This document shows positions 4,142 to 49,592 of a stretch of DNA of 64,000 bases, piece after piece (the first letter of the stretch is position 1; each line of letters starts with the position of its first letter). The notes under the pieces were generated by a model that saw nothing but the letters and a program-made list of their open reading frames with translations, did no database searches and was not told the DNA's origin. Source of the DNA: Flavobacteriales bacterium (GTDB lineage: Bacteria; Bacteroidota; Bacteroidia; Flavobacteriales_C; CBFIFL01). Location of the stretch: the NCBI GenBank assembly GCA_965661855.1, contig CBFIFL010000001.1, positions 20,182 to 84,181 of the forward strand, given 5' to 3'. A program made the translations under genes and the position numbers.

Positions 4142-4894
4142 CTAAATATTCTGTTTCACAATTTTCATGAACTTAGAAGCATAAACGAATTCGTTTACTT
4201 CAGGATTATCTGTCTTTAAGATTTCCTCTTTGCTTCCATTCCACCATAATTGTCCTTCATGAATAAAAGAAATATGGTCACCTATTTCAATCACTGAGTT
4301 CATGTCGTGAGAAATGACAACCGTTGTCATGTTGTATTCTTCGGTGATGTCTTTAATCAAGTTATCAATTACAATGGAGGTTCTTGGATCTAGACCAGAG
4401 TTTGGTTCATCACAGAAAAGATATTTAGGGTTCATTGCAATGGCTCTTGCAATAGCAACACGTTTTTGCATTCCTCCCGAAATCTCTCCAGGATATAAAT
4501 GATTGGCATTGCTGATATTCACTCTATCTAAACAGAAGTTAACTCGATCTAGTTTTTCTTCTTTAGTCATGTCAGTAAACATGTCTAAAGGGAACATGAT
4601 GTTTTCTTGAACAGTTTGAGAGTCAAATAACGCTCCAGCCTGAAAAAGCATCCCGATTTCTTTTCGAACATCCTTTTTCTCATTGAAAGACATTTCAAAA
4701 AAGTTTTGTCCATCATAAAGAACTTGACCTTGATCAATATCTAACAGACCAACTAGACACTTAAATAAAACAGATTTTCCAGCTCCTGATTGACCGATAA
4801 TCATGTTTACTCTTCCTTGTTGAAGATCTACATTGATATCTTTCAGAATCTCTCTTCCATCAAAACCTTTGTATATTCCTTTCGCTTCTATCAT
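4142..4894 (-). CDS. ABC transporter ATP-binding protein, MlaF/Ttg2A-like
   Basis: Walker A GQSGAGKSV, signature ISGGMQKRVAIARA, Walker B LFCDEP, H-loop. Overlaps the upstream permease by 4 nt. Confidence 0.8.
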   Translation of the reverse strand: MIEAKGIYKGFDGREILKDINVDLQQGRVNMIIGQSGAGKSVLFKCLVGLLDIDQGQVLYDGQNFFEMSFNEKKDVRKEIGMLFQAGALFDSQTVQENIMFPLDMFTDMTKEEKLDRVNFCLDRVNISNANHLYPGEISGGMQKRVAIARAIAMNPKYLFCDEPNSGLDPRTSIVIDNLIKDITEEYNMTTVVISHDMNSVIEIGDHISFIHEGQLWWNGSKEEILKTDNPEVNEFVYASKFMKIVKQNI

Positions 4895-5643
4895 TGCAAT
4901 AATAGTTGAGTTAAGATTACATCAAAAAGAAGAATAGCAATACTAGAGTAAACAACTCCTTTGGTAGATGCTGAACCAACTTCTAAAGCTCCTCCTTTTG
5001 TCATGAACCCATGATAAGAAGATACACTTGAAATGATAAAGGCAAATACTACCGTTTTAAGTAAAGCGAAAATTACGTTGAAAGGAACAAATCCATATTG
5101 GATTCCATCGATGAAATCTTGTCCAGTAACTGCTCCTGTCGTGATACTAGCAATGTATCCTCCTAGTACTCCTAAAAACATAGATAGGATAACTAAGAAT
5201 GGATTAATAATAACGGATGCTATAATTTTTGGTGCAATTAAAAAGGCAGCTGAATTAACTCCCATGATTTCAAGTGCGTCTACCTGTTCCGTTACTTTCA
5301 TGGTACCTATTTCAGATGCCATATTCGATCCTACTTTTCCTGCCAATATTAAACTGATAATAGTTGGAGAAAAGGCTAAGATCATTGAATCTCTTGTTGC
5401 AACACCTTCAGCGTATGACGGTACCCAAGGACTTTCAAATCCGTAAGCAGACTGAATAAGGATTACAGCTCCCATGAAAACGGAGATGATGGAAACAATC
5501 CCCAAAGAGCCTAAACCTACCTTGTCAATTTCTTTAATAACCTGCTGCCAGTAAAGCGCTTTGCTTTCAGGTCTACCGAAAACTCTTTTCAGTAGTATGT
5601 AATAAAGTCCTAAATGATTGAATATATTTAACATCCGTAGCAA
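4891..5643 (-). CDS. ABC transporter permease, MlaE family
   Basis: Polytopic membrane protein of about 250 aa immediately upstream of the MlaF-like ATPase and translationally coupled to it. Confidence 0.75.
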   Translation of the reverse strand: MLRMLNIFNHLGLYYILLKRVFGRPESKALYWQQVIKEIDKVGLGSLGIVSIISVFMGAVILIQSAYGFESPWVPSYAEGVATRDSMILAFSPTIISLILAGKVGSNMASEIGTMKVTEQVDALEIMGVNSAAFLIAPKIIASVIINPFLVILSMFLGVLGGYIASITTGAVTGQDFIDGIQYGFVPFNVIFALLKTVVFAFIISSVSSYHGFMTKGGALEVGSASTKGVVYSSIAILLFDVILTQLLLQ

Positions 5644-24495: not shown

Positions 24496-26187
24496 TTAAA
24501 ATTTCATCACATAAAAAATAGACATTTGATTAAATGTATATGGATTATCAACTACAAAAGTGTTAGTGTTACTCTCATACATTGCTGCTAGATATGCTTT
24601 TTTAGAAAAATCAAATCTCAATCCACTAGCTATATTTAATTCATTTCCATCTACAATAAAGTCGTTGTAATTTATAATTACATCATCGGCATTTCTGTCT
24701 GGTAATTGGTCCTTTCCCGTTGCTTTCATTAGGAAGAGATTACCCATTATAAATAAGTCGTCGATCAACTCTGCTTCTAGACCGAAGTTGATCAATGTTG
24801 AAGTTAGGTCAACATTTTGGAAAGTAAATTCACCATTTCTTGTTGTTTGTTGAAGAGTGACGCCTAACTGAGCATTTAACTCTTTTTTTCCTCCCCATAG
24901 TTTATTAGCATGAAGTGCTCCGTTCATGTTCGCTATCAGGAAAGATTTTAGATTTGTTGTTCCTTGGCCACGTATTTCAGATAGGTAGTATAATTTACCA
25001 TTTGTTTCAAAGATTTGTTTTTTATCAGAGTAATTAACCCCCATATAGGCACCTCTTCTGTTAAAAGTTGCAATTCCAAATGGGAGAGCATTATTTACGG
25101 CAGGATTATAATCCATAACACCAACTGAAATACCTTGATTTATTAAATTAGGGTCATTGTACATGTCGAACATTGATACAGGTCTCAAAATCTGTGAGTT
25201 TGTATAACGATTATAAAAACTATTTTGTTGATTGAAATTTACCCGTCGTGATTGAGCTCCAAAGCTTCTAAAATCAGGACCGTTATCCATATATCCAAAA
25301 TTGAAATTCAATCTTAATTTCTTTAAGTTCAAATAAGCACGTGTATGAACGAAATAGTCTGAAAGCTCTTTTTCAGGATAGAGGCTTTCAGAGGTAATTC
25401 CAATACCTGATTCGCCATCTAACCCATAAGTGAATTGCTCATTTTCAAATTGGAAATCGTAAGTAAAGGTACTTACGTTATTATTATAAATATTGCTATC
25501 TATTGCTGTTCCAGCTAAATCGAATACACTCACATGATTCAGACCAAGCTTAACATTTTCACCTTGGTTTATCACCATATTTCCTCCACCATAAAGTCGT
25601 TCTAAAATACTATTCAAATCAGTTGGATTAAGTCGTGAAATGAATCCATTGAATTCAATTTCGTCAATTATTTTAGGGAACTGCAAAGCGAAATTAACAG
25701 AGGCTCCTTGTTGACGCCATGTATTATTACTATAAAATGATTCATAATTTAAAACATCTTCTTTGATTTTCAGCACGCCTAATGAAGAGGTAAGGAAATC
25801 AGTATTGTGATTATAAAATGTATATGGTGTTAATTTGTAGTCAATATTTCCAATATGATAGCGCACTACATCCGCTGCAACGCCTCGAACATATAATTGA
25901 CGAACATCAAAAGATACACTACCACCCCAGAAACCTCCAAAAGCATTGTTAATCCTAAACATTCCCAAAACTTCCGTTTTTTGATTTGGATTAATTTTGA
26001 TCCCAAGGTCAAGTAAAGCGTAACCTCCAGATGATTTTGGTGCTGTAATAGAATCATTTTCAGTCATGAATTTTGAATTCGTAACCTGTGATCGTGCACC
26101 GCCAATAAATTGTACTTTCTTGCCTTGCTGCGAAAAAGCAGAAGTTGAGCACATAAACGTTAATATGATAATTGAAATACTTCTCAT
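24496..26187 (-). CDS. Predicted outer-membrane beta-barrel protein (563 aa), family unknown (porin-like)
   Basis: Signal peptide. Alternating amphipathic beta-strand composition rich in Y/N/G/F. C-terminal aromatic residue (…YVMKF). Adjacent to the next gene with zero spacing. Confidence 0.5.
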   Translation of the reverse strand: MRSISIIILTFMCSTSAFSQQGKKVQFIGGARSQVTNSKFMTENDSITAPKSSGGYALLDLGIKINPNQKTEVLGMFRINNAFGGFWGGSVSFDVRQLYVRGVAADVVRYHIGNIDYKLTPYTFYNHNTDFLTSSLGVLKIKEDVLNYESFYSNNTWRQQGASVNFALQFPKIIDEIEFNGFISRLNPTDLNSILERLYGGGNMVINQGENVKLGLNHVSVFDLAGTAIDSNIYNNNVSTFTYDFQFENEQFTYGLDGESGIGITSESLYPEKELSDYFVHTRAYLNLKKLRLNFNFGYMDNGPDFRSFGAQSRRVNFNQQNSFYNRYTNSQILRPVSMFDMYNDPNLINQGISVGVMDYNPAVNNALPFGIATFNRRGAYMGVNYSDKKQIFETNGKLYYLSEIRGQGTTNLKSFLIANMNGALHANKLWGGKKELNAQLGVTLQQTTRNGEFTFQNVDLTSTLINFGLEAELIDDLFIMGNLFLMKATGKDQLPDRNADDVIINYNDFIVDGNELNIASGLRFDFSKKAYLAAMYESNTNTFVVDNPYTFNQMSIFYVMKF

Positions 26188-28089
26188 TTAAAAGAATATT
26201 TTTAATTCAACAGTAGTTTCTTTTCCTTTATATTGATCTAGTTCAAAACTATAATCACGGTAGTTTATCCATCTGTGTCTGATGTATAAACCGGTATTAC
26301 GCGACATTTGTATATCTAATCCTAAAGCATAGCTTATTCCTTCTTGATTTTTTGGGGCTAGAGAAAGGGTGTTTAGCTCAGTGTTGTCCCCTCCATATAT
26401 TCTGTCGTATCCGAGATAATGGCATAGGACTATATTTTTAGACAGCGAGTAGTATAGATCAAGTTGATGATTGTAGCTCTGTAAATAAGCCTTTTTCGAA
26501 TACACTGGTAGAACTGAAAAGTCGCGCTGAACCGTATGGAATCCTCCTAAATAGAAGAACATTAATTTTCTATTGAAAACTTTTGTAAATGTTTTAAAGC
26601 TAACTTCCACTGAATTAAATCCTTTAGCCGAAACAGAATCGGTAATTAGCATAGTTTCATATACACCACGATAGATTTTGCTGATGTTTTGGTATGGTCC
26701 AACACCACTTGGGAAACCCCAACGCCAGAATCTTGAAAGTGCTAAGTTGTTTGCAGGGTGACCATATGTTATTCGATCTGAAATTCCTTCAATTTCCTTT
26801 GCTGCACTATATCCGATCGTCAATTTGCTTCGTCCTAACTTTAAGTCAGTATTAAGAATGATTCCTTGACGGTTATTAGTCATTTGTCCAATAGTTGTTT
26901 GAGAGCTTGCAAAAGGGAATAGCAAAGGAGCCTGACCTGGGTCTTGTTGAGCATATTGTTGTGAATACTCTTGAATAGAAGTATTCCAGAAAATACCATT
27001 ATTATTAAGTACTCTTGGACTAACTCGGAAATAACGAATTTCTATAGGAAAAGGAGTCATGGATTCCAGCAGGTTTAATTTAATATCCATAACTTCTCCC
27101 CATTGTCCTTCATGATTAGGTGAAAAATAATTACCTGATCCAAATTCTCCCGATAATTTCATTTTATTTTCAAAATTTAATTGAAATTCGGATGTAATCA
27201 TATTGAATCCAACAAGATCCTGGGCTAAACTATCCGAGTAAGTTTGATTGCGAATAGCATTAAAACTTACAAAGTTATCTTTAATGTTTTTACGGATTTT
27301 ACCACCTGTGAGCTGATTAGGTAGGGGAGCGCTACCACCATTTAATTGAGATTTTCCGTGCATGAACGCAAATGAAAAATCGTTAGGTAAACTCTGACCA
27401 TCAAAGATAAAACCATGAAAAGCCTGTTGTCCCCATCTTACATCTTGTGTTAGTGCTCCATTATTATAAAAAGTGTCATAACGCTCGAAAATGTTTTTTG
27501 TGTTAGGATCCCATGGATTACGTTCGAATAAACTGTATCTATTATATCCTGTATTAGAAGAGAAGGTTAACGGAGAAAGCTTATACCAGTGAATCCCTCC
27601 TGTTTTTACACTAAAGGTTCCGTATTTTGTTGAGTGGGATCCATCTAGGTTAATTCCGAGTAAAAGACCTTTAACGTAGCTTTCATCATCCCCCGTCATA
27701 GGGTTCCATAAATACAAGTCAGTTGAAATTGAGGTGTTTTTTGACGGGCTTATCCCTAACGTTAAGCTCAATTCGGGCAGGTTACTATCATCTCCGATAA
27801 ATACAGTGTTTTTTACGCTTCCCATTTCCGGATATAATTTACTCATTGAAGTGTATGCTCCTAAGAATCTATAATACCCGTTTACAGAAATGTTTGACAA
27901 TCCTTTTTGATAATTTTTCGGCTCAAGACCACCATTGTCTGGCTTAAACATACTTAAGTCAGAGGCAGTCTGTCCCATAGCTCCAAAAACTGACGTCAGA
28001 GCCAAAAAGATGAGTGTTATTTTAATATTCAGTTGGCTCAAGGTCTTGTATTTTAAATTTAACGTTATTAAACTCTTGTAAAGAATCAT
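26188..28089 (-). CDS. Predicted outer-membrane beta-barrel protein (up to 633 aa), family unknown. The true start is probably downstream of the listed ATG.
   Basis: Hydrophobic signal-like segment (ITLIFLALTSVFGAMG), then a beta-rich sequence ending …VELKIFF. The listed ATG overlaps the upstream GH gene by 68 nt, so a later start is likely. Confidence 0.5.
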   Translation of the reverse strand: MILYKSLITLNLKYKTLSQLNIKITLIFLALTSVFGAMGQTASDLSMFKPDNGGLEPKNYQKGLSNISVNGYYRFLGAYTSMSKLYPEMGSVKNTVFIGDDSNLPELSLTLGISPSKNTSISTDLYLWNPMTGDDESYVKGLLLGINLDGSHSTKYGTFSVKTGGIHWYKLSPLTFSSNTGYNRYSLFERNPWDPNTKNIFERYDTFYNNGALTQDVRWGQQAFHGFIFDGQSLPNDFSFAFMHGKSQLNGGSAPLPNQLTGGKIRKNIKDNFVSFNAIRNQTYSDSLAQDLVGFNMITSEFQLNFENKMKLSGEFGSGNYFSPNHEGQWGEVMDIKLNLLESMTPFPIEIRYFRVSPRVLNNNGIFWNTSIQEYSQQYAQQDPGQAPLLFPFASSQTTIGQMTNNRQGIILNTDLKLGRSKLTIGYSAAKEIEGISDRITYGHPANNLALSRFWRWGFPSGVGPYQNISKIYRGVYETMLITDSVSAKGFNSVEVSFKTFTKVFNRKLMFFYLGGFHTVQRDFSVLPVYSKKAYLQSYNHQLDLYYSLSKNIVLCHYLGYDRIYGGDNTELNTLSLAPKNQEGISYALGLDIQMSRNTGLYIRHRWINYRDYSFELDQYKGKETTVELKIFF

Positions 28090-41846: not shown

Positions 41847-42060
41847 GTTTTGAATGATTGCTGTTAAGTTTCACTTCGTCTTCAAGAAGAATTCGAACTC
41901 CAGGGGATTCTAAATCATCAAACTGACCTTGCTCAGTTGAACGAATGAAGAGGAATAGGAATAAACCTCCTAATAAAATACTGATCCCTATGAGTAAGAA
42001 TAATACTCCCATGATACAAAGGTAGAGGAGATGATTTTCGGTAGATGTGATAGGTGTCAA
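41827..42060 (-). CDS. ccoS: cbb3 oxidase maturation protein CcoS. The true start is probably the internal Met (MGVLFLL...), giving about 61 aa.
   Basis: CcoS-like sequence (single TM helix, then GQFDDLESPGVRILLEDE). Overlaps the ccoNO start by 20 nt. Confidence 0.6.
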   Translation of the reverse strand: MTPITSTENHLLYLCIMGVLFLLIGISILLGGLFLFLFIRSTEQGQFDDLESPGVRILLEDEVKLNSNHSKHGTTTF

Positions 42061-42069
42061 ATCAAGACA

Positions 42070-42081
42070 TGATAATTATCA
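42070..42081. promoter_or_regulatory. FNR/CRP-type box TGATAATTATCA upstream of the ccoS-ccoNO operon
   Basis: Perfect 12-bp palindrome with TGAT-N4-ATCA half-sites, about 10 bp upstream of the listed ccoS start. Confidence 0.45.
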
Positions 42082-42187
42082 GTTTTCACTTAAAGTCCTT
42101 ATTTTTAATAAAGAATATTGCTTCAGTTGAAAATCAATTTGAAGGACTATAATTAAGTATAATAAAACAGAAATAAAACATTAAGTT

Positions 42188-42817
42188 ATGACGATTACAG
42201 GAAGACAATTTCCAGATTTAAAGGTGAAAATGATCAATGCTAAAGGAGAGATCAAAGAGCAAAGTATCACTCAAATCGCAAAAGAAAACAAGAAGAAAGT
42301 TGTTTTGTTTTGGTACCCAAAAGATTTCACATTTGTATGCCCAACTGAACTACATGCATTTCAAGCAAAGCAAGCTGAATTTGAAAAAAGAAACACGATA
42401 GTAATTGGTGCTTCTTGTGACACAGCTGAAGTTCATTTAGCTTGGTTACATACAGAGAAAAACAAGGGAGGAATTCAAGGGGTTTCTTATGATTTAGTTT
42501 CTGATTCAAACCGAAATTTAGCAGAGACTTTAGGGATTTTAGATTCGACCTTAGTTGAAGAAGGAGATGATATCTTATTAGAAGGAGACAACGTTACTTA
42601 CAGAGCAACTTATTTAATTGATGAAGAAGGAACAGTGTTTCATGAAGGAATCAATCATATGCCTTTAGGTAGAAACGTAGATGAGTTCATCAGATTAGTT
42701 GACGCTTATACGCATGTTCAAGAAAATGGAGAAGTTTGTCCTGCAAACTGGTCTGAAGGAGAAGACGCTATGAAAGCTGATAGAGATGGTGTAGCTGATT
42801 ATTTATCAAATCACTAA
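42188..42817 (+). CDS. Peroxiredoxin (AhpC/Tsa family, typical 2-Cys)
   Basis: Peroxidatic Cys motif FTFVCPTE and a resolving Cys near the C-terminus (EVCPANW). Confidence 0.85.
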   Translation: MTITGRQFPDLKVKMINAKGEIKEQSITQIAKENKKKVVLFWYPKDFTFVCPTELHAFQAKQAEFEKRNTIVIGASCDTAEVHLAWLHTEKNKGGIQGVSYDLVSDSNRNLAETLGILDSTLVEEGDDILLEGDNVTYRATYLIDEEGTVFHEGINHMPLGRNVDEFIRLVDAYTHVQENGEVCPANWSEGEDAMKADRDGVADYLSNH

Positions 42818-42858
42818 GAATTGATTACCAGATTTAATCTGGTGATTGGGTAATATGA

Positions 42859-42890
42859 ACCACAACCTTTTACGGGTTGTGGTTTTTTCT
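42859..42890 (+). terminator. Rho-independent terminator of the peroxiredoxin gene
   Basis: ACCACAACCttttacGGGTTGTGGT followed by TTTTTTCTTTGG. Confidence 0.7.
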
Positions 42891-42943
42891 TTGGTGTCTT
42901 AACTACGGATTTAAGGATTGATAAATATGAACGGGATTAAATT

Positions 42944-43021
42944 TTCGGGCACCCGCAAGAGGAGCCCCTACGATTACTCGTTAACAAATCCTGGTAGGGG
43001 CTCCCCTTGCGGGTGCCCGAA
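42944..43021. repeat. GC-rich 28-bp inverted repeat (27 of 28 complementary) with a 22-nt loop
   Basis: TTCGGGCACCCGCAAGAGGAGCCCCTAC ... GTAGGGGCTCCCCTTGCGGGTGCCCGAA. Roughly 64% GC within a locus of about 35% GC. Confidence 0.6.
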
Positions 43022-43032
43022 TAATAAACCAA

Positions 43033-43068
43033 GAAAATCTCCGATTTTACCTCCACGATATCCGTGGT
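43033..43068. repeat. Copy B of the roughly 35-nt intergenic motif shared with 35308..35345
   Basis: AGAAAATCTCCGATTTTACCTCCACGATATCCGTGG. Lies directly after the tolC-like stop (minus-strand orientation) and just after the GC-rich inverted repeat. Confidence 0.6.
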
Positions 43069-43081
43069 AAAAACTGAATAC

Positions 43082-44482
43082 CTATATCTGATAAAGAATC
43101 CCTAATTTATAAAGCAAGTCAACGTAACTAACTTGCAACTTTTCTTTAAGTTGTATTGCTTTGATTTGGCTTTTCAATAAGCTACTTTCTCGTTTGTTAA
43201 CCATGAAAACAGAACTTTCACCAATTTCAAACTTCTTTCTTTCACCAAGAAGTAAGCGCTGGTAATTGATAACTACTTGATCTGTGGTGGCCAACTGAAG
43301 TTTTATGTTTTCTAGCTTTTGCAGGCTATTTAATATTTGATTTTTAAGATCTAATTCTTGTTGATCTATGGCTAAGTTTTGATAATCAATTTTTACTTGA
43401 GCTAGTTTAATTTTTGCTCTCTCTTTTCTTAAGAATAGATTGTATTTAAAATCAATACCTAGCTTGTAATTATTCATCAAATAGTCAGAATTTAAATCGA
43501 CTAAAGAACCTGGTCCTTGAATTGCATTGTACTTTAAGTCTAACTGAGGTTTTAAAGATTCTCGTTTTAATTTTTGGTCTATTTCTATTTGTTGAAGTTT
43601 AGCAGCCATTTCCAATAGTTTAGGATGTAAAGTATCCAGGCCATTAATGTTTTTATAAATTAATTCAGGACTTATTTCATTGTCGATTTTACTTTTAAAT
43701 TGACTTGGCAGGAGGTTCCCCTCAATTTCTAAAGGGGTATTGTTTTCTCCCCATAAAAAGGTGTTTAAATAGTATTGAGCTGACTGGTATTTCTGTTTGG
43801 CTTGCTGAAGATTCAATTCACGGTTTTGGACTTGAATAAAGTTTTCTAAGGTGTCTATTGCAGGTTTATCTCCTTGAATAAAGCTTTGTTTAGTTTGAAG
43901 GAATCGATCATAGGAGATGTCATAAGCTTCTTGTGAAACCATTACTTCAAAATAGGTGCTGGTCCAGTTCCAATAAGCAAATGAAGCATCTCTGTATAAG
44001 CTATTTAATACTTGAACTTGACGGTTCGTATTTTGTTCTTGAAAGATTTTAGCTTTTTTAAGGCTTGCTCTTCTTTCATCAATTAAAAGACCTTTCCCCA
44101 ATGAGACTTTAAGTCCTGCAGACCATAAACCATCATCAGGAAGGTTTAGCATTTCATCGAGGTACTTTCCAGTGGTGTTTTCGTATCCACCTTGGATTTC
44201 AATTCCGTACCAGGTTGGGATTTTTAATGACCCGTTCAATAATTCGTAATAATTACTTTCCTTAAATACTTTTTGATTTAAACCCCCCGTTAGTTTAGGA
44301 TCAAAGCCACCTCTGGCTTCGCTTAGTTTTGCCTTTGCTTCAATATCCAATAGTTGAGCTTGTTTTGCTATCGGATGGTTGTTTTTTACCCAAGCAAGAT
44401 AAGTGTCCATGTCTAGCTTTTTATCTTGAGCATGAATTAAAACACTACTGATTAATATGAATATTAGTCCAAAGACTCTCAT
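43082..44482 (-). CDS. TolC family outer-membrane efflux protein
   Basis: Signal peptide. 466 aa with the duplicated coiled-coil/beta architecture of the OMF family. Confidence 0.75.
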   Translation of the reverse strand: MRVFGLIFILISSVLIHAQDKKLDMDTYLAWVKNNHPIAKQAQLLDIEAKAKLSEARGGFDPKLTGGLNQKVFKESNYYELLNGSLKIPTWYGIEIQGGYENTTGKYLDEMLNLPDDGLWSAGLKVSLGKGLLIDERRASLKKAKIFQEQNTNRQVQVLNSLYRDASFAYWNWTSTYFEVMVSQEAYDISYDRFLQTKQSFIQGDKPAIDTLENFIQVQNRELNLQQAKQKYQSAQYYLNTFLWGENNTPLEIEGNLLPSQFKSKIDNEISPELIYKNINGLDTLHPKLLEMAAKLQQIEIDQKLKRESLKPQLDLKYNAIQGPGSLVDLNSDYLMNNYKLGIDFKYNLFLRKERAKIKLAQVKIDYQNLAIDQQELDLKNQILNSLQKLENIKLQLATTDQVVINYQRLLLGERKKFEIGESSVFMVNKRESSLLKSQIKAIQLKEKLQVSYVDLLYKLGILYQI

Positions 44483-45835
44483 CTATTTGTTCTTTTTGGT
44501 TTCTTTTGTTTTTCCTTGGTAAAAATTAGGAGGGAAGCCGTTTATGTTTCGCCATAGTTCATACCAGATAGGCACATCCTCTAACAGAGCAAAAGCTTTA
44601 ACACCGGCGCCAATTTTAATTAAATCAGGCCAATGATGGTCTTCAGATTCATGTTCAGCAATTAAAACACGGTACTTTCCATTTTCAGAGATGAAATTAT
44701 CGATAGCAACTACTCTACCTCCAAAGGTACCGTGAGATACACCTGGCCATCCAGAAAAAACGATAGCAGGCCACCCGTCGAAAACAATTCTTACATCTTC
44801 TCCAACTTTCATTAAAGGTAAGTCCATTGGTTCAACATACATGGTTACTGCTAATTGGTGATCTGCAGGCATAATACTTAATATCTTATCACCTGCTTTT
44901 ATCGTTTCGCCAATACCTGTTTTAATGGCTTGAGTTATGTATCCGTTTTGAGGAGCTGTAATGTAATAAAGACCAGTTCTCATGCTGTAATTCATGTATT
45001 GAATTTGCATTTTGGTTACTTGTCCTTCTGCATCATACATGTTGGAAAGAGCAGTGAACTTAGTTGATTCAGCTTTGGATAATTTATCTCTGTATAAGCT
45101 CTCAATGGATTCAAGGTCTACTTTTACATTGATTAGTTTGTTTCTACTGGTAAGCAATTTGTTTTCTGCTTCTATTCGTTTTGCTTTTGTCTTTTGAACC
45201 TTCATTTTTGCTTTTTCCAAATCGGTCAAAGACTTTAAACCTTCTTCATAAAGCGTTTCAGTTCGTTTCAGTTGTCTTTCGGAAATCACAAAATCATTTT
45301 CAGCATTTTGAACATTAGCACTATCTGATTGAATCGCCAGAAGAGCTTGCTTTACATAGTTTTGAGATTGTTGTGTTTTCAGCTTTCGAATATTGATCAA
45401 TGCATCGATTTGATTATCTAGGGCTTTTACTTTTTCCATGTAAGACTTAACAGAAAGCTCTTTTGCTTTAATCTGCGTGTCCGTTCTTTCAACTAAATTC
45501 GGATCGAAATATTCTCCTTTAATTTCAGAGATAAAAAGAATTGTATCTCCTTTAGCCACATAATCTCCTTCAGTTACAAACCATTTTTCGATTCTACCAG
45601 GGATAACCGATTGAATTGTTTGAGGTCTTTGTCCAGGAGTAAGTGTGGTAACATAACCTTTCGCACGAATGTTTTGAGTCCAAGGAATGAATAAGATTAC
45701 AGCAAAAAGAAGGATGCTAAAATTCAATAGTTTCTTTAAAACCTTTTGGCTTTTATACTTTCTTGCAGCTCCAAATGACTCCAACTTATTTGGATCAATT
45801 TTATGATTTATACGGTTGTTGCTTAGGTTCAGCAT
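44483..45835 (-). CDS. HlyD family secretion protein (membrane fusion / periplasmic adaptor)
   Basis: N-terminal TM anchor, long coiled-coil region, C-terminal beta domain. Zero-spaced to tolC. Confidence 0.8.
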   Translation of the reverse strand: MLNLSNNRINHKIDPNKLESFGAARKYKSQKVLKKLLNFSILLFAVILFIPWTQNIRAKGYVTTLTPGQRPQTIQSVIPGRIEKWFVTEGDYVAKGDTILFISEIKGEYFDPNLVERTDTQIKAKELSVKSYMEKVKALDNQIDALINIRKLKTQQSQNYVKQALLAIQSDSANVQNAENDFVISERQLKRTETLYEEGLKSLTDLEKAKMKVQKTKAKRIEAENKLLTSRNKLINVKVDLESIESLYRDKLSKAESTKFTALSNMYDAEGQVTKMQIQYMNYSMRTGLYYITAPQNGYITQAIKTGIGETIKAGDKILSIMPADHQLAVTMYVEPMDLPLMKVGEDVRIVFDGWPAIVFSGWPGVSHGTFGGRVVAIDNFISENGKYRVLIAEHESEDHHWPDLIKIGAGVKAFALLEDVPIWYELWRNINGFPPNFYQGKTKETKKNK

Positions 45836-45836
45836 A

Positions 45837-47549
45837 TTAATTTAGCTCAAAGATGTTTTTAAATAAGTCCTCGTTTTGCAGTGCTGACCAATTGTTGTCG
45901 AACTTCAATTCTCCTTTATCTATTATCCATGATCTATCCATTCTTTTCGCGATATTAATATCATTTGAGATAATAATAACCGAGAAGTCCGATTCAATTA
46001 GGAATGACATAAAAGCATTGATTTGTCCTCTGCTTAAACTAGCGAATTGATCTTCGAGTAAAATTAATCGTGGTTCTCCTACTACAGCTCGAGCTAAAAT
46101 GATCTTACGTTTTAAGCAACGAGAAATATTTTTACCCTGAGGCATTAATTTGGTGTTATAGCCGTCATCAAGTCGGTTGATTTGCTCTTCGAATCCAAGA
46201 ATGCTACCAATTTTTTTCACTTGATCAATAGTAACTTTCTCTCTGCCAAGTGTAATGTTTTCCATTAAGCTGGCTTCGAAAATAGCTTCACCTTCTAAAT
46301 TGTCACCAATGGCATAAAAGATATCTTCTTTGTTCCAGTTCTGAAGTAATATTTTATTGCAGGTAATGGTTCCTTGGTAGTTGTCGTAAATACCTGCAAT
46401 TAATTCAGCTAAAACAGTTTTACCTGAATCAGGGAAACCAGACAGACATATTTTGTCACCATGGTTAACTTGAAGGTTAACATGATTGATCATAGGAGTG
46501 TTGTTATCTATGAACTTATATGAAACATCACTTAATTCGATATCAATATAGTTATCTTTGAATTCGATAGAATTATCGTTGTTGTCTAAAGGAATATCAA
46601 GTACTTCTCCAATTTTTTCAACTCCAGTTAACACATCATAAATAGATTCCATAGATAAGATAACTTTCTCCATAGATCCCATTAATAAGAGTATGATTAC
46701 TTCGGAAGCAACGAATTGACCGATGTTCATTTTTTGGTTGATCACTAAGAGTCCACCTATTAATAATAGAGCTAGGACGACAACAGTTTGAATAGTAACC
46801 AGAATATAATATTGTGTTTTTAGCGTTTGGAAATGTGAATCTCTGGCCCCTAAGTATTCTTTAACTACTTCATCTGTTTTGTTTAAAACCAAATCAGATT
46901 TACCCGAAAGCTTGAAAGTCTCCATTGTTCTTGCGATTTCCTCTAGCCAGTGTGCTACTTCGTATTTGTATCGTGATTCTTTAAGACTAGATTTTAATCC
47001 TTTAGGAATGGTGTATTTGAAAAGCACGTATAGTGTAACAAGCATTCCGATCGAAAAGAATATAAAGTAAGGGTGGTAGATGCTCAGAAGAATCATTCCG
47101 AATATAACCTGTAAAGAGGCTGATGAGAAATCCATTAGCATCTTTGTGATTCCTTTTTGAATGGTTAAGGTATCGAAGAAACGATTCGTTAATTCTGGAA
47201 GGTGTTTGTGCCAAACAGCCTCTAGTTTTAAACGAGGCATTCTGTACGCAAATTCAAAAGCTGATCGAGTGAATATTTTTTGCTGGATACTTTCAGAAAT
47301 GGATAATTGATAGATCTGCATAACTCCAGATATGGCAACACCTGCTACAACAAAGATTAATAATACAATCCATGAAGTTGAAATTTCACCACCAGTGATG
47401 AGGTTGATGATTGCCTGTATTCCAAGTGGTAATGATAGCGTCACTAATCCACGAAAAAGCGCGAAATAATATATCGCAAAAACGTCTTTCTTATCTACTT
47501 TAAGCAGGTTAATGAATCGTTTGAAAGATGTTAAAGGGAGTTCAGACAT
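45837..47549 (-). CDS. ABC exporter (fused TMD-NBD, no C39 peptidase domain) with a catalytically degenerate nucleotide-binding domain
   Basis: Six-helix TMD followed by an NBD that keeps Walker A (LSGFPDSGKT). Signature is ISRCLKRK instead of LSGGQ. Walker B is LILLEDQ instead of hhhhDE. H-loop His is replaced by Asn (IIISNDINI). No Q-loop Gln. Confidence 0.75.
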   Translation of the reverse strand: MSELPLTSFKRFINLLKVDKKDVFAIYYFALFRGLVTLSLPLGIQAIINLITGGEISTSWIVLLIFVVAGVAISGVMQIYQLSISESIQQKIFTRSAFEFAYRMPRLKLEAVWHKHLPELTNRFFDTLTIQKGITKMLMDFSSASLQVIFGMILLSIYHPYFIFFSIGMLVTLYVLFKYTIPKGLKSSLKESRYKYEVAHWLEEIARTMETFKLSGKSDLVLNKTDEVVKEYLGARDSHFQTLKTQYYILVTIQTVVVLALLLIGGLLVINQKMNIGQFVASEVIILLLMGSMEKVILSMESIYDVLTGVEKIGEVLDIPLDNNDNSIEFKDNYIDIELSDVSYKFIDNNTPMINHVNLQVNHGDKICLSGFPDSGKTVLAELIAGIYDNYQGTITCNKILLQNWNKEDIFYAIGDNLEGEAIFEASLMENITLGREKVTIDQVKKIGSILGFEEQINRLDDGYNTKLMPQGKNISRCLKRKIILARAVVGEPRLILLEDQFASLSRGQINAFMSFLIESDFSVIIISNDINIAKRMDRSWIIDKGELKFDNNWSALQNEDLFKNIFELN

Positions 47550-47710
47550 GTGGGTAATGTAATTTTGTTTAATATTTAAACCCCTAAATAATGGTTTTGC
47601 TTAAGTTTTACAGCTTATTTTTTATTTATATAACGAATCTTTTGCATAACACTTGTTAATGATAGCTTAGGCTCAATGACTTGAAGTTAAAAATGACCCA
47701 AAAACAACAA

Positions 47711-47743
47711 GCCCTATATCAAAAGTTGATATAGGGCTTGTAT
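47711..47743 (-). terminator. Rho-independent terminator downstream of the DUF885 gene
   Basis: 13-bp perfect stem AAGCCCTATATCA-aaagt-TGATATAGGGCTT, followed on the minus strand by TTGTTTTTGGG. Confidence 0.6.
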
Positions 47744-47804
47744 AAGGATTATGAACAAAAGAACGATTGTAAATGATAGACGATCGTTTTTTTACATGGT
47801 TGCC

Positions 47805-49592
47805 TTAGCTATTTTCTTTTATCCAATTATCTATGCTTTTTTCGAATACGTTTAATGGAACAGGTCCGCTTAACAAGAAGATATCATGGAATTTTTTAAT
47901 ATCGAATTTATCACCCATAGCTTGTTTTGCTTTTTCTCTAATCTCCAGAATTTTAATCATTCCAACTTTGTATGCTGTTGCTTGGCCTGGCATAACGATA
48001 TATCTTTCAATCGCTTTTTTACAGGAGTTATATGAGTTTGGGGTATTGTCTTGCAGGTATTGAATAGCTTCTTCTCGGGTCCATTTTTTTGCATGTATAC
48101 CAGCATCAACTACTAATCTACAAGCTCTCCATAATTCCATAGCTAAACGGCCAAAATCAGAATAAGGATTTTTATAGAATCCATATTCCTTTGGTAAGAA
48201 TTCACAATAAAGTCCCCAACCTTCCACATATGCCGTATAATCCAAATGTTTTCTGAATTCTGGAATTCCAGTCATTTCTTGAGCGATTGAAATCTGCATG
48301 TGATGTCCTGGTAAACCTTCATGATAAGCCAGTGCTTCCATTTCGTATGTAGGCATGTCTTTCATTTCATAAAGATTAGCATAGAAATATCCAGGTCTTG
48401 AACCATCAATTGATCCATTGTCATAAAATGCTTTTCCTGCAGACTTTTCTCTATAAGCTTCAACTGCTTTAACAACTAAAGGAGCTTTAGGTTTTGTTAA
48501 GAATAGTTCATCTAACTTTAGTCTCATTGAATCGATAATGGCAGTGTAACCATCGATCATTTTTTTCTTTCCTTCAGTACCATTTTCATAATAGAACTGA
48601 TCGTCATTTTTCATGAATTGGAAAAAAGACTTCAAATCACCTTTGAATCTTACTTTATTCATGATGTCCTTCATTTCTCCATGAATACGAGCAACTTCGT
48701 CTAAACCGGTTTGATGAATTTTTTCAGCTGACCAGTCTGTAGTTGTAATGAATTTTAACCTGTAGTCATAGTATTCTTTTCCGTTGGGAAATTTCCAAAC
48801 ACCGTCATCTTTACTTGCTGTTTTTTTATGCTCGATCAAGTAATCCTTTAATTTTTTATAAGAAGGAACTAATACCGTTGAAATACTACTTTTTAAATCG
48901 TCTAAAAGTGCTGTTTGAATAGATTCGTCAAACGACAATTTTTCGATTTTTGACAAGAAGTCTTTATATAGAATATGGTCTTCACTTGTACCATTTCCCA
49001 TAATGTTATCACAATCATTGATCATGTAGTCATAGGAAAACAAAGGAACAGAGATGCCATTGTTACTTCGGATATCTAATTTCTCCAATAACTGTTCAAA
49101 GTATACTTCAATACCATTAATTCTAGAGATATATGCTTTGGCATCTGAAAGGCTATCAATTTTATGATTGTTAATCATGAATGAAGGGAGTTCACTCTGA
49201 GCTCCGTGCATTTGATTAACAGGATAGTTATGCAGTCTGAATTTTTTGTTTTCTAATTGGAAGGCTAAATCTTCTCGTAATAATTGGTAAGATAGCTTGG
49301 TGTCTGAATTGAAACCTGTTGTATCAATAGATTTGATTTCGAGTAATCTATTTTCGATTTTATCGAAGTAGGCAAGGTTAGCTGAGTCTGAGATGTCGTT
49401 TAATTGATCGTAATTTTCCTTTCTTCCCAAACGTGTTAAAAACATTGGGTTTTCTAATAAATCTGCCTCGAAACAACTATCTGACCATTGTTTAAAGTCG
49501 AATGGTTGATTAGCAGTTTTATGTTGTTCAGGAGAATTACATGCTGCCATTAATGTAACAGCTGCTAAAAGAAAAAGACGAATACTATTCAT
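47805..49592 (-). CDS. DUF885 family lipoprotein (metallopeptidase-like HEGxPGHH motif)
   Basis: Lipobox (LMAACNS). Motif HEGLPGHH. Length 595 aa, typical of DUF885. Confidence 0.7.
   Translation of the reverse strand: MNSIRLFLLAAVTLMAACNSPEQHKTANQPFDFKQWSDSCFEADLLENPMFLTRLGRKENYDQLNDISDSANLAYFDKIENRLLEIKSIDTTGFNSDTKLSYQLLREDLAFQLENKKFRLHNYPVNQMHGAQSELPSFMINNHKIDSLSDAKAYISRINGIEVYFEQLLEKLDIRSNNGISVPLFSYDYMINDCDNIMGNGTSEDHILYKDFLSKIEKLSFDESIQTALLDDLKSSISTVLVPSYKKLKDYLIEHKKTASKDDGVWKFPNGKEYYDYRLKFITTTDWSAEKIHQTGLDEVARIHGEMKDIMNKVRFKGDLKSFFQFMKNDDQFYYENGTEGKKKMIDGYTAIIDSMRLKLDELFLTKPKAPLVVKAVEAYREKSAGKAFYDNGSIDGSRPGYFYANLYEMKDMPTYEMEALAYHEGLPGHHMQISIAQEMTGIPEFRKHLDYTAYVEGWGLYCEFLPKEYGFYKNPYSDFGRLAMELWRACRLVVDAGIHAKKWTREEAIQYLQDNTPNSYNSCKKAIERYIVMPGQATAYKVGMIKILEIREKAKQAMGDKFDIKKFHDIFLLSGPVPLNVFEKSIDNWIKENS

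Follow-up and report, generated by a model that had tools for sequence, protein, structure and literature searches.

A Bacteroidota family of ABC exporters with a degenerate nucleotide-binding domain in a conserved adaptor-TolC operon

The system described here is a three-gene operon in the genome of a Flavobacteriales bacterium that encodes an inner-membrane ATP-binding cassette (ABC) protein, a periplasmic adaptor and an outer-membrane channel. All coordinates refer to the window, which is the whole 64,000-nucleotide (nt) stretch of DNA analysed (GCA_965661855.1, contig CBFIFL010000001.1), and all three genes lie on its minus strand. The ABC protein very likely represents a family in which the ATPase is dead throughout, the protein is maintained by selection, no partner accompanies it and the operon is conserved. 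As a combined statement about mechanism, a homodimeric pseudo-ATPase exporter with nucleotide sensing and a drive other than ATP hydrolysis, possibly the proton-motive force, is considered probable on balance. An initial annotation of this DNA had proposed a three-gene export operon at 43082..47549; that layout holds, and the order ABC gene, adaptor gene, channel gene is constant in all 73 related loci with enough flanking sequence.

45837..47549, minus strand: ABC half-transporter of 570 amino acids (aa) with a degenerate nucleotide-binding domain (NBD), the inner-membrane component of the tripartite system (uninterrupted open reading frame (ORF), Pfam, AlphaFold2 and Foldseek)
44483..45835, minus strand: HlyD-type membrane-fusion (periplasmic adaptor) protein of 450 aa (Pfam Biotin_lipoyl_2 and HlyD_3)
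43082..44482, minus strand: TolC/OEP-family outer-membrane channel of 466 aa with a signal peptide-like N-terminus (Pfam OEP, 90.8 bits, in two stretches)

The ABC protein is a type IV (ABCB-like) exporter of the ABC superfamily, with a six-helix ABC_membrane domain, a fused NBD and a matching fold. In Pfam it scores 61.7 bits to ABC_membrane (PF00664) and just 44.1 bits to ABC_tran (PF00005), both over the cut-off; as an internal control, the canonical MlaF protein encoded in the same window scores 117.9 bits to ABC_tran. The AlphaFold2 model has a predicted local distance difference test (pLDDT) score of 82.8, and a Foldseek search with this model gives template-modelling (TM) scores of 0.91 to HlyB (8dck_A), 0.86 to PCAT1 and 0.78 to PrtD. 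The scores to HlyB, TmrAB, Sav1866 and PCAT1 range from 0.84 to 0.91, and TM287/288 also superposes. No NCBIfam model reaches its cut-off with the protein. The best similarities are to NHLM_micro_ABC1 (TIGR03796, 163 bits) and bacteriocin_ABC (TIGR01193, 149 bits), followed by LssB, PrtD and HlyB; the models for type I secretion systems (T1SS; TIGR01842, TIGR01846 and TIGR03375) score 135-136 bits against cut-offs of 510-726. On homology the protein is assigned to the branch that holds T1SS transporters and peptidase-containing ABC transporters (PCATs). It starts at the elbow helix (aa 8-17 in the model) and has no Peptidase_C39 match, so it does not qualify as a PCAT itself. Its main parts are as follows.

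46575..47549, minus strand: transmembrane domain (TMD) and intracellular helical bundle, aa 1-325, six long helices in the AlphaFold2 model, the most conserved part of the protein
47175-47198, minus strand: coupling helix PELTNRFF, inside the TMD
46701-46703, minus strand: Glu283, putatively membrane-embedded in transmembrane helix 6, Glu in 147 of the 150 distant representatives described below
45840..46547, minus strand: degenerate NBD (pseudo-ATPase), aa 335-570, the region of the ABC_tran match, with about 10 conserved positions

The NBD motifs were placed by HMMER alignments to the solved exporters Pgp-1 (4f4c) and PrtD (5l22), and their coordinates were verified by translation.

46512..46514, minus strand: A-loop aromatic residue Phe346, retained, aligned with the A-loop Tyr of Pgp-1
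46416..46439, minus strand: Walker A (P-loop) GFPDSGKT, retained
46293..46295, minus strand: Q-loop position, Glu419 instead of Gln
46113..46127, minus strand: signature (C-loop) position, ISRCL instead of LSGGQ
46050..46067, minus strand: Walker B strand, LILLED against the canonical ILLLDE, with Glu499 at the Asp position and Asp500 at the position of the catalytic Glu
46032..46043, minus strand: D-loop position, ASLS instead of SALD
45960..45968, minus strand: H-loop (switch) position SND, Asn529 instead of His

Among the features of a competent ATPase, Walker A and the A-loop aromatic residue are present; the LSGGQ signature, the Walker B Glu, the H-loop His, the Q-loop Gln and the D-loop Asp are missing. 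Read from these alignments, the NBD keeps the elements for nucleotide binding (A-loop, P-loop and an acidic Walker B residue), and those for hydrolysis and for the sandwich dimer are lost. The initial annotation had listed losses in the signature, in the order of the Walker B Asp and Glu, in the D-loop and Q-loop and at the H-loop (Asn), and the alignments to 4f4c and 5l22 bear out each of them. Its statement that only Walker A is retained holds for Walker A itself and is otherwise too narrow, since Phe346 and the acidic Glu499 are kept too. The conclusion that a homodimer would contain two non-hydrolytic sites stands on the motif losses.

The degeneracy extends through the family, which was sampled at three depths. 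The close set holds the 120 best database homologues, at 50-83% identity. A scan of species-representative genomes returned at least 587 loci, of which 80 were kept, and 83 species-level loci were used for the motif counts. The distant set, from an exhaustive profile search, consists of 150 representatives of 50%-identity clusters, all scoring more than 550 bits. Gene neighbourhoods were analysed in 81 related loci. The 80 kept loci are essentially all from Bacteroidota, namely Flavobacteriales, Cytophagales, Saprospiraceae, Chitinophagales and Sphingobacteriales.

The elements for nucleotide binding are the better preserved ones close to the window protein. The A-loop position is invariant in the close subfamily and is Tyr in 72 and Phe in 31 of the distant representatives, and the Walker A Lys is present in 119/120 close homologues, 78/83 species loci and 111/150 distant representatives. 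At the signature, SGG occurs in 0/120, 0/83 and 3/150 sequences of the same sets, and the 120 close homologues share the consensus NLPKS[IV]RLK in its place. The close set also has consensus sequences for Walker B (LILLEDNF) and for the H-loop (SN[DN]). Across the 150 distant representatives the Walker B pair is not conserved, the states being ED (35), DD (31), DE (17), EN (8) and others. The Q-loop position is mainly Ser, Ala or Thr family-wide, and the D-loop Asp is found in 7/120, 13/83 and 36/150 sequences. The H-loop position among the 83 species loci is Asn in 34, Ser in 19, Asp in 11 and something else in the others, with His never conserved; in the distant set His stands at the aligned column in 12/150 representatives, and any His within positions 528-530 in 19/150. 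Of the four catalytic motifs (SGG, DE, His and Gln), no sequence among the 120, 83 and 150 relatives has more than two. The initial annotation had reasoned that canonical motifs in orthologues would mark the window copy as simply decaying, and over these three sets no orthologue proved canonical.

Two observations on the composition of the family stand apart from these counts. One full TetR-ABC-adaptor-channel operon, with 47% identity, lies on a 924-kb contig labelled 'uncultured Akkermansia sp.' (L012, CAZQKN010000001.1), and its place on a Verrucomicrobiota-labelled contig reflects either mis-binning, mislabelling or horizontal transfer. There is also a sister subfamily of longer proteins: 61 of 149 distant representatives (about 40%) have 690-776 aa, with an extra N-terminal domain of 150-190 aa ahead of the same degenerate NBD (examples are L088:8001-10244, which is P0140, and P0125, P0129 and P0136), and the window protein is a short form without this domain. 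One long-form gene (L088) sits in an ABC-adaptor-channel operon without TetR. The N-terminal domain has no Pfam match (C39 included), no significant sequence match in the PDB and no conserved Cys or His. Its AlphaFold model, at a pLDDT of 80.5, weakly resembles the papain-like C39 domain of ComA and PCAT1 (Foldseek probability 0.93-0.99, E about 0.03, TM score 0.58-0.63 on the target), and judging by this model it is possibly a second pseudo-enzyme domain. The family has the look of a lineage of PCAT or HlyB type whose ATPase became a pseudo-enzyme, as did a peptidase-like domain in the long forms.

Both domains of the ABC protein are under purifying selection, with the NBD evolving about twice as fast as the TMD. 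Compared with two syntenic relatives at 83% identity, the proportion of nonsynonymous differences (pN) is 0.07-0.09 in the TMD and 0.14-0.18 in the NBD, and the proportion of synonymous differences (pS) is 0.77-0.85; only pN and pS are given, and no dN/dS ratio (of substitution rates), because even relatives with 83% amino-acid identity are saturated at synonymous sites. Mean pairwise identities of TMD and NBD are 0.75/0.49 in the close set, 0.58/0.36 in the species loci and 0.47/0.28 in the distant set. In a control, a canonical MsbA-like exporter of the same phylum with GSSGSGKS, LSGGQ and VIILDE intact, the values are 0.869/0.862.

Over the 150 representatives, 71 positions in the TMD are at least 85% conserved, as are about 10 in the NBD. 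E86, S192, K195, W201 and K312 in the TMD are identical in 150/150, and further conserved positions comprise coupling helix 1 (P118-E119-N122-R123-F124-F125), R236, H239, the Y158-H159 turn and a ladder of glutamines (Q45, Q81, Q147, Q246 and Q278). Glycines make up most of the conserved NBD positions, which also include N431 and R487. The Walker A Lys is missing from 39/150 representatives, several of which have no recognisable P-loop. These Lys-less members retain 94% of the 71 conserved TMD positions, the same as the Lys-containing members, which argues that across the family the function of the conserved core is independent of nucleotide binding. The initial annotation had offered ATP binding without hydrolysis and an ATP-independent channel or scaffold as two possible explanations. 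Both stay plausible, and as far as sequence conservation can tell, the family data lean toward ATP-independence of the core function.

A TetR-family gene (TetR_N) lies directly upstream of the ABC gene in 52 of the 81 loci, often overlapping the ABC start codon (for example L001:9316-9999 and L004:9315-10004). The encoded proteins are weakly similar to FadR- and KstR-type regulators, a resemblance that is only a hint at lipid-like ligands. All-versus-all clustering of flanking ORFs of at least 70 aa in the 81 loci yielded as conserved genes only TetR, ABC, membrane-fusion protein (MFP) and outer-membrane factor (OMF), with no second ABC gene and no cargo gene. Among ORFs of 25-95 aa within 1.2 kb of the operon, clustering found nothing common to more than six loci and no conserved gene for a double-glycine leader peptide. 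The initial annotation had reported no cargo or peptide gene adjoining the operon; there is none in the window, and none is conserved in the 81 loci. No cargo with RTX (repeats-in-toxin) sequences or a C-terminal signal occurs near the operon, and such a cargo may be encoded elsewhere in the genome. With its frequent TetR gene and missing cargo gene, the operon looks more like that of a regulated pump for efflux or export than like a system dedicated to protein secretion. The earlier label 'T1SS-like' is apt as to homology, with PrtD, HlyB, PCAT1 and HlyD as the nearest solved relatives, and less so as to the kind of pump that the TetR gene and the lack of a cargo gene suggest.

In the mechanism that these results are taken to favour, canonical ATP hydrolysis would not power the pump. 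The ABC protein would by default form a homodimer with two non-canonical sites, and the NBD, docked on the conserved coupling helices, would have a structural, dimerising or ATP-sensing role. Nucleotide binding by the NBD probably persists in the window's subfamily, via the A-loop Phe, the Lys and Thr of Walker A and Glu499, and this binding is probably still used there because the P-loop and A-loop are nearly invariant. Alternating access of the TMD would be driven by the proton-motive force via conserved protonatable residues, with Glu283 as the prime candidate. As a fallback, the system may be gated and release a substrate of intracellular origin down its gradient. The TetR linkage and the missing cargo gene suggest a small molecule or a peptide as the substrate, for which the presumed TetR repressor, encoded beside the operon in the majority of genomes, would probably be the sensor.

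Transport of this kind has parallels among relatives of ABC transporters. SbmA, of the SbmA/BacA group, is a natural NBD-less, proton-driven relative; unlike the window protein, it works without an NBD, an adaptor or a TolC partner. The membrane domains of MsbA and LmrA (MsbA-MD and LmrA-MD) show that a type IV membrane domain is able to transport by a pH gradient without ATP hydrolysis (PMC4979069). NBD-less MsbA-MD carries out ethidium efflux that depends on the pH gradient, and a triple carboxylate mutant is inactive (PMC4979069); for LmrA, coupling to ion gradients has been reported (PMC6155054). MsbA-MD and LmrA-MD are laboratory truncations, whereas here the NBD is folded, selected and part of a tripartite pump, and proton coupling is something that we only infer. 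A more radical version, possible but rather doubtful, holds that the family has abandoned ATP hydrolysis, and often ATP binding, and is a TolC-coupled secondary transporter driven by the proton-motive force, with a fossil NBD (and C39-like domain) as a structural or regulatory module.

Several points weigh against the proton-driven pseudo-ATPase. The proton-motive-force step is one that we infer solely from precedent and the conservation of carboxylates. The Walker A Lys is near-invariant in the window's own subfamily (119/120 and 78/83) and the A-loop aromatic residue is kept, so that nucleotide binding matters there. Slow, unorthodox ATP hydrolysis may persist in that subfamily, and an ABC partner could, formally, be encoded far away in the genome. 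The TetR gene is missing from the window's lineage (the window itself, L085 and L087), whose members share surroundings that run from DUF885 to AhpC.

The alternative that survives best, though it is judged unlikely, is an unorthodox but real ATPase whose slow hydrolysis with substitute residues would leave the pump primary active. Glu499 would hold Mg2+, Asp500 would be the base, and the Lys or Arg of LPKS[IV]R would reach the gamma-phosphate across the dimer. The preservation of Walker A and of the A-loop aromatic residue in the window's subfamily fits this proposal, as do the purifying selection on the NBD, the separate consensus that replaces the signature there and an acidic pair that is most commonly ED among the 83 loci (63 E, 49 D). 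However, the candidate substitute residues are not conserved with divergence: the Walker B pair is variable, the signature triplet has no majority state, and the H-loop position in the 150 representatives takes the states N, H, S, D, T, K, E and more. The 39 representatives without the Walker A Lys, with undiminished TMD conservation, also speak against it. Replacement of the catalytic Glu by Asp, of the H-loop residue or of the signature is generally known to cut the ATPase activity of canonical exporters severely in each case, which is also what the review PMC7756269 indicates.

A role other than pumping is rated as quite improbable. It would make the protein a passive and possibly ATP-gated channel, an anchor or assembly scaffold of the adaptor-TolC conduit, or a trans-envelope tether. 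Such a role could accommodate the loss of all catalytic motifs, in a quarter of the subfamilies along with the P-loop, and an adaptor that varies extremely little and evolves in step with the ABC protein; CFTR and SUR are known cases of ABC proteins that act as an ATP-gated channel and a regulator. The high conservation of the translocation domain, the coupling helices and the putatively intramembrane polar residues Q45, Q81, Q147, Q246, Q278 and E283 points instead to a specific conformational or transport cycle, and TetR-linked induction is typical of substrate-responsive efflux.

An obligate heterodimer with a canonical half-transporter encoded elsewhere, one of the explanations raised in the initial annotation, is very unlikely. 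Such a pair would have one active site, as in TM287/288, TmrAB and BmrCD. Heterodimeric exporters with one degenerate site are common, according to the review PMC7756269, and Bacteroidota genomes do have canonical MsbA-like half-transporters, for example L001 4684-6420. That gene, however, is confined to its lineage and encoded on the other strand; in the 81 loci no second ABC exporter gene adjoins the operon, and none was detected in the 64-kb window by phmmer or Pfam. A canonical partner would also not rescue the ATPase, because the same chain has lost both the catalytic residues and the signature, which leaves both composite sites defective whatever the partner. The MlaF/MlaE pair of the window (4142-5643, minus strand) was considered as an ABC partner and rejected as unrelated lipid-transport machinery. 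That the window copy is decaying, has diverged by chance on its own or reflects an error of sequencing or frame, for which the low ABC_tran score of 44 bits might be cited, is a negligible prospect: the ORF is continuous and the orthologues are collinear and full-length, which also disposes of the misread frame considered in the initial annotation, the gene is tightly coupled to those downstream, pN is far below pS, the AlphaFold2 model is confident, and the same degeneracy recurs in at least 587 loci of species-representative genomes and in all alignments.

The proposed pseudo-ATPase exporter resembles several characterised systems in part. With PrtD and HlyB-HlyD-TolC (5l22, 8dck) it shares the type IV fold (TM scores of 0.78-0.91), the closest sequence relationship among solved proteins and the ABC-MFP-OMF architecture. 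It differs from these T1SSs in that the window protein lacks the motifs for ATP hydrolysis and has a TMD more conserved than the NBD, and in that no cargo with RTX sequences or a C-terminal signal lies near the window operon and TetR often heads the operons of the family. PCAT1 and ComA are related through the top NCBIfam similarities (bacteriocin_ABC and NHLM_micro_ABC1), the TM score of 0.86 to the PCAT1 core and the C39-like domain of the long sister forms, whereas the window protein has no peptidase domain, a dead NBD and no leader peptide gene conserved nearby. MacAB-TolC is likewise an ABC-driven tripartite system for the efflux of small molecules or peptides through TolC, but MacB has a type VII fold, a large periplasmic domain and a canonical ATPase, and the window protein is of type IV. 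In CFTR and SUR (ABCC7 and ABCC8/9), a degenerate site binds nucleotide to gate or regulate, not to energise transport; these proteins are eukaryotic and full-length, keep one hydrolytic site and are homologous only at the level of the superfamily.

The heterodimeric exporters TM287/288, TmrAB, BmrCD and MsRv1273c/72c, in which one chain has a degenerate Walker B Glu, H-loop and Q-loop, are the nearest parallel for the motif losses and include close structural matches. As in TM287/288 and TmrAB, and as the review PMC7756269 describes, the degenerate chain of such exporters keeps a canonical signature and the second site is complete; according to the same review, the degenerate site still binds ATP. 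They are encoded by two adjacent genes and have one fully canonical site, whereas here there is a single ABC gene and both sites are degenerate.

In a literature of which coverage is incomplete, no published account was found of this Bacteroidota family, nor of a homodimeric ABC exporter that is fully degenerate in nature. What defines an ABC exporter is that ATP drives its NBDs to dimerise, and to our knowledge a degenerate site otherwise occurs only together with an active one. A family whose homodimers have two dead sites, and which selection maintains across hundreds of Bacteroidota species as part of an adaptor-TolC pump, would differ from the known cases. It would offer a natural test case for the dispute over whether the membrane domains of ABC exporters can act as ion-coupled secondary transporters, which has so far been argued only from engineered MsbA and LmrA. 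If the proposed mechanism is true, it would constitute a natural transition from a primary to a secondary active transporter within the ABC superfamily and a fourth energetic class of tripartite efflux beside resistance-nodulation-division (RND), major facilitator superfamily (MFS) and canonical ABC systems, and many proteins annotated as 'ABC transporter ATP-binding protein' in Bacteroidota would be pseudo-ATPases. The family also points to an exported compound, probably TetR-sensed, that is common to marine and soil Bacteroidota.

The adaptor ORF begins 1 nt past the ABC stop, and the channel ORF abuts the adaptor directly. The adaptor has a short cytoplasmic N-terminus, one transmembrane helix and an ultra-conserved Trp/Pro-rich C-terminal region. 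Its sole sequence match in the PDB is HlyD (8dck_C), and it scores 79 bits to the NCBIfam model type_I_hlyD (TIGR01843), under the cut-off of 209. The last 100 residues or so (window 44516-44788, minus strand) are almost invariant over 78 species, with the consensus FDGWPaivFSGWP..YGTygg...WP..lR.GsGa...LL.dVP.WyElWR..NgFPp, and the coiled-coil region is far less conserved. This C-terminal region may touch the conserved periplasmic turns Y158-H159-P160 and N271-N275 of the ABC protein.

On its 5' side the operon is preceded by a DUF885 gene and the following region.

47550..47706, minus strand: 5' intergenic region of the operon, between the DUF885 terminator and the ABC gene

The operon should have its own promoter region, because the upstream DUF885 gene closes with a strong terminator (47741-47707). 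Two short blocks, TTATATAAATA and TAAACAAAA, are kept in the 5' region of the window and of the two 83%-identical relatives. The intergenic region contains no TetR gene, no leader-peptide ORF and no small ORF on the same strand, and an E-value scan of 42000-48200 against Rfam returned nothing above noise, with no riboswitch or leader upstream of the operon.

Elsewhere in the window, two adjacent large ORFs of 563 and 633 aa (24496-26187 and 26188-28089, both on the minus strand) match no Pfam family at E <= 0.001. Downstream of the operon lies a convergent peroxiredoxin gene. Between this gene and the TolC-like gene, 42937-43028 forms a spacerless inverted repeat with 46-nt arms that are 80% complementary. 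It gave spurious Rfam matches to mir-3158 on both strands and is probably a bidirectional terminator or a repeat element.

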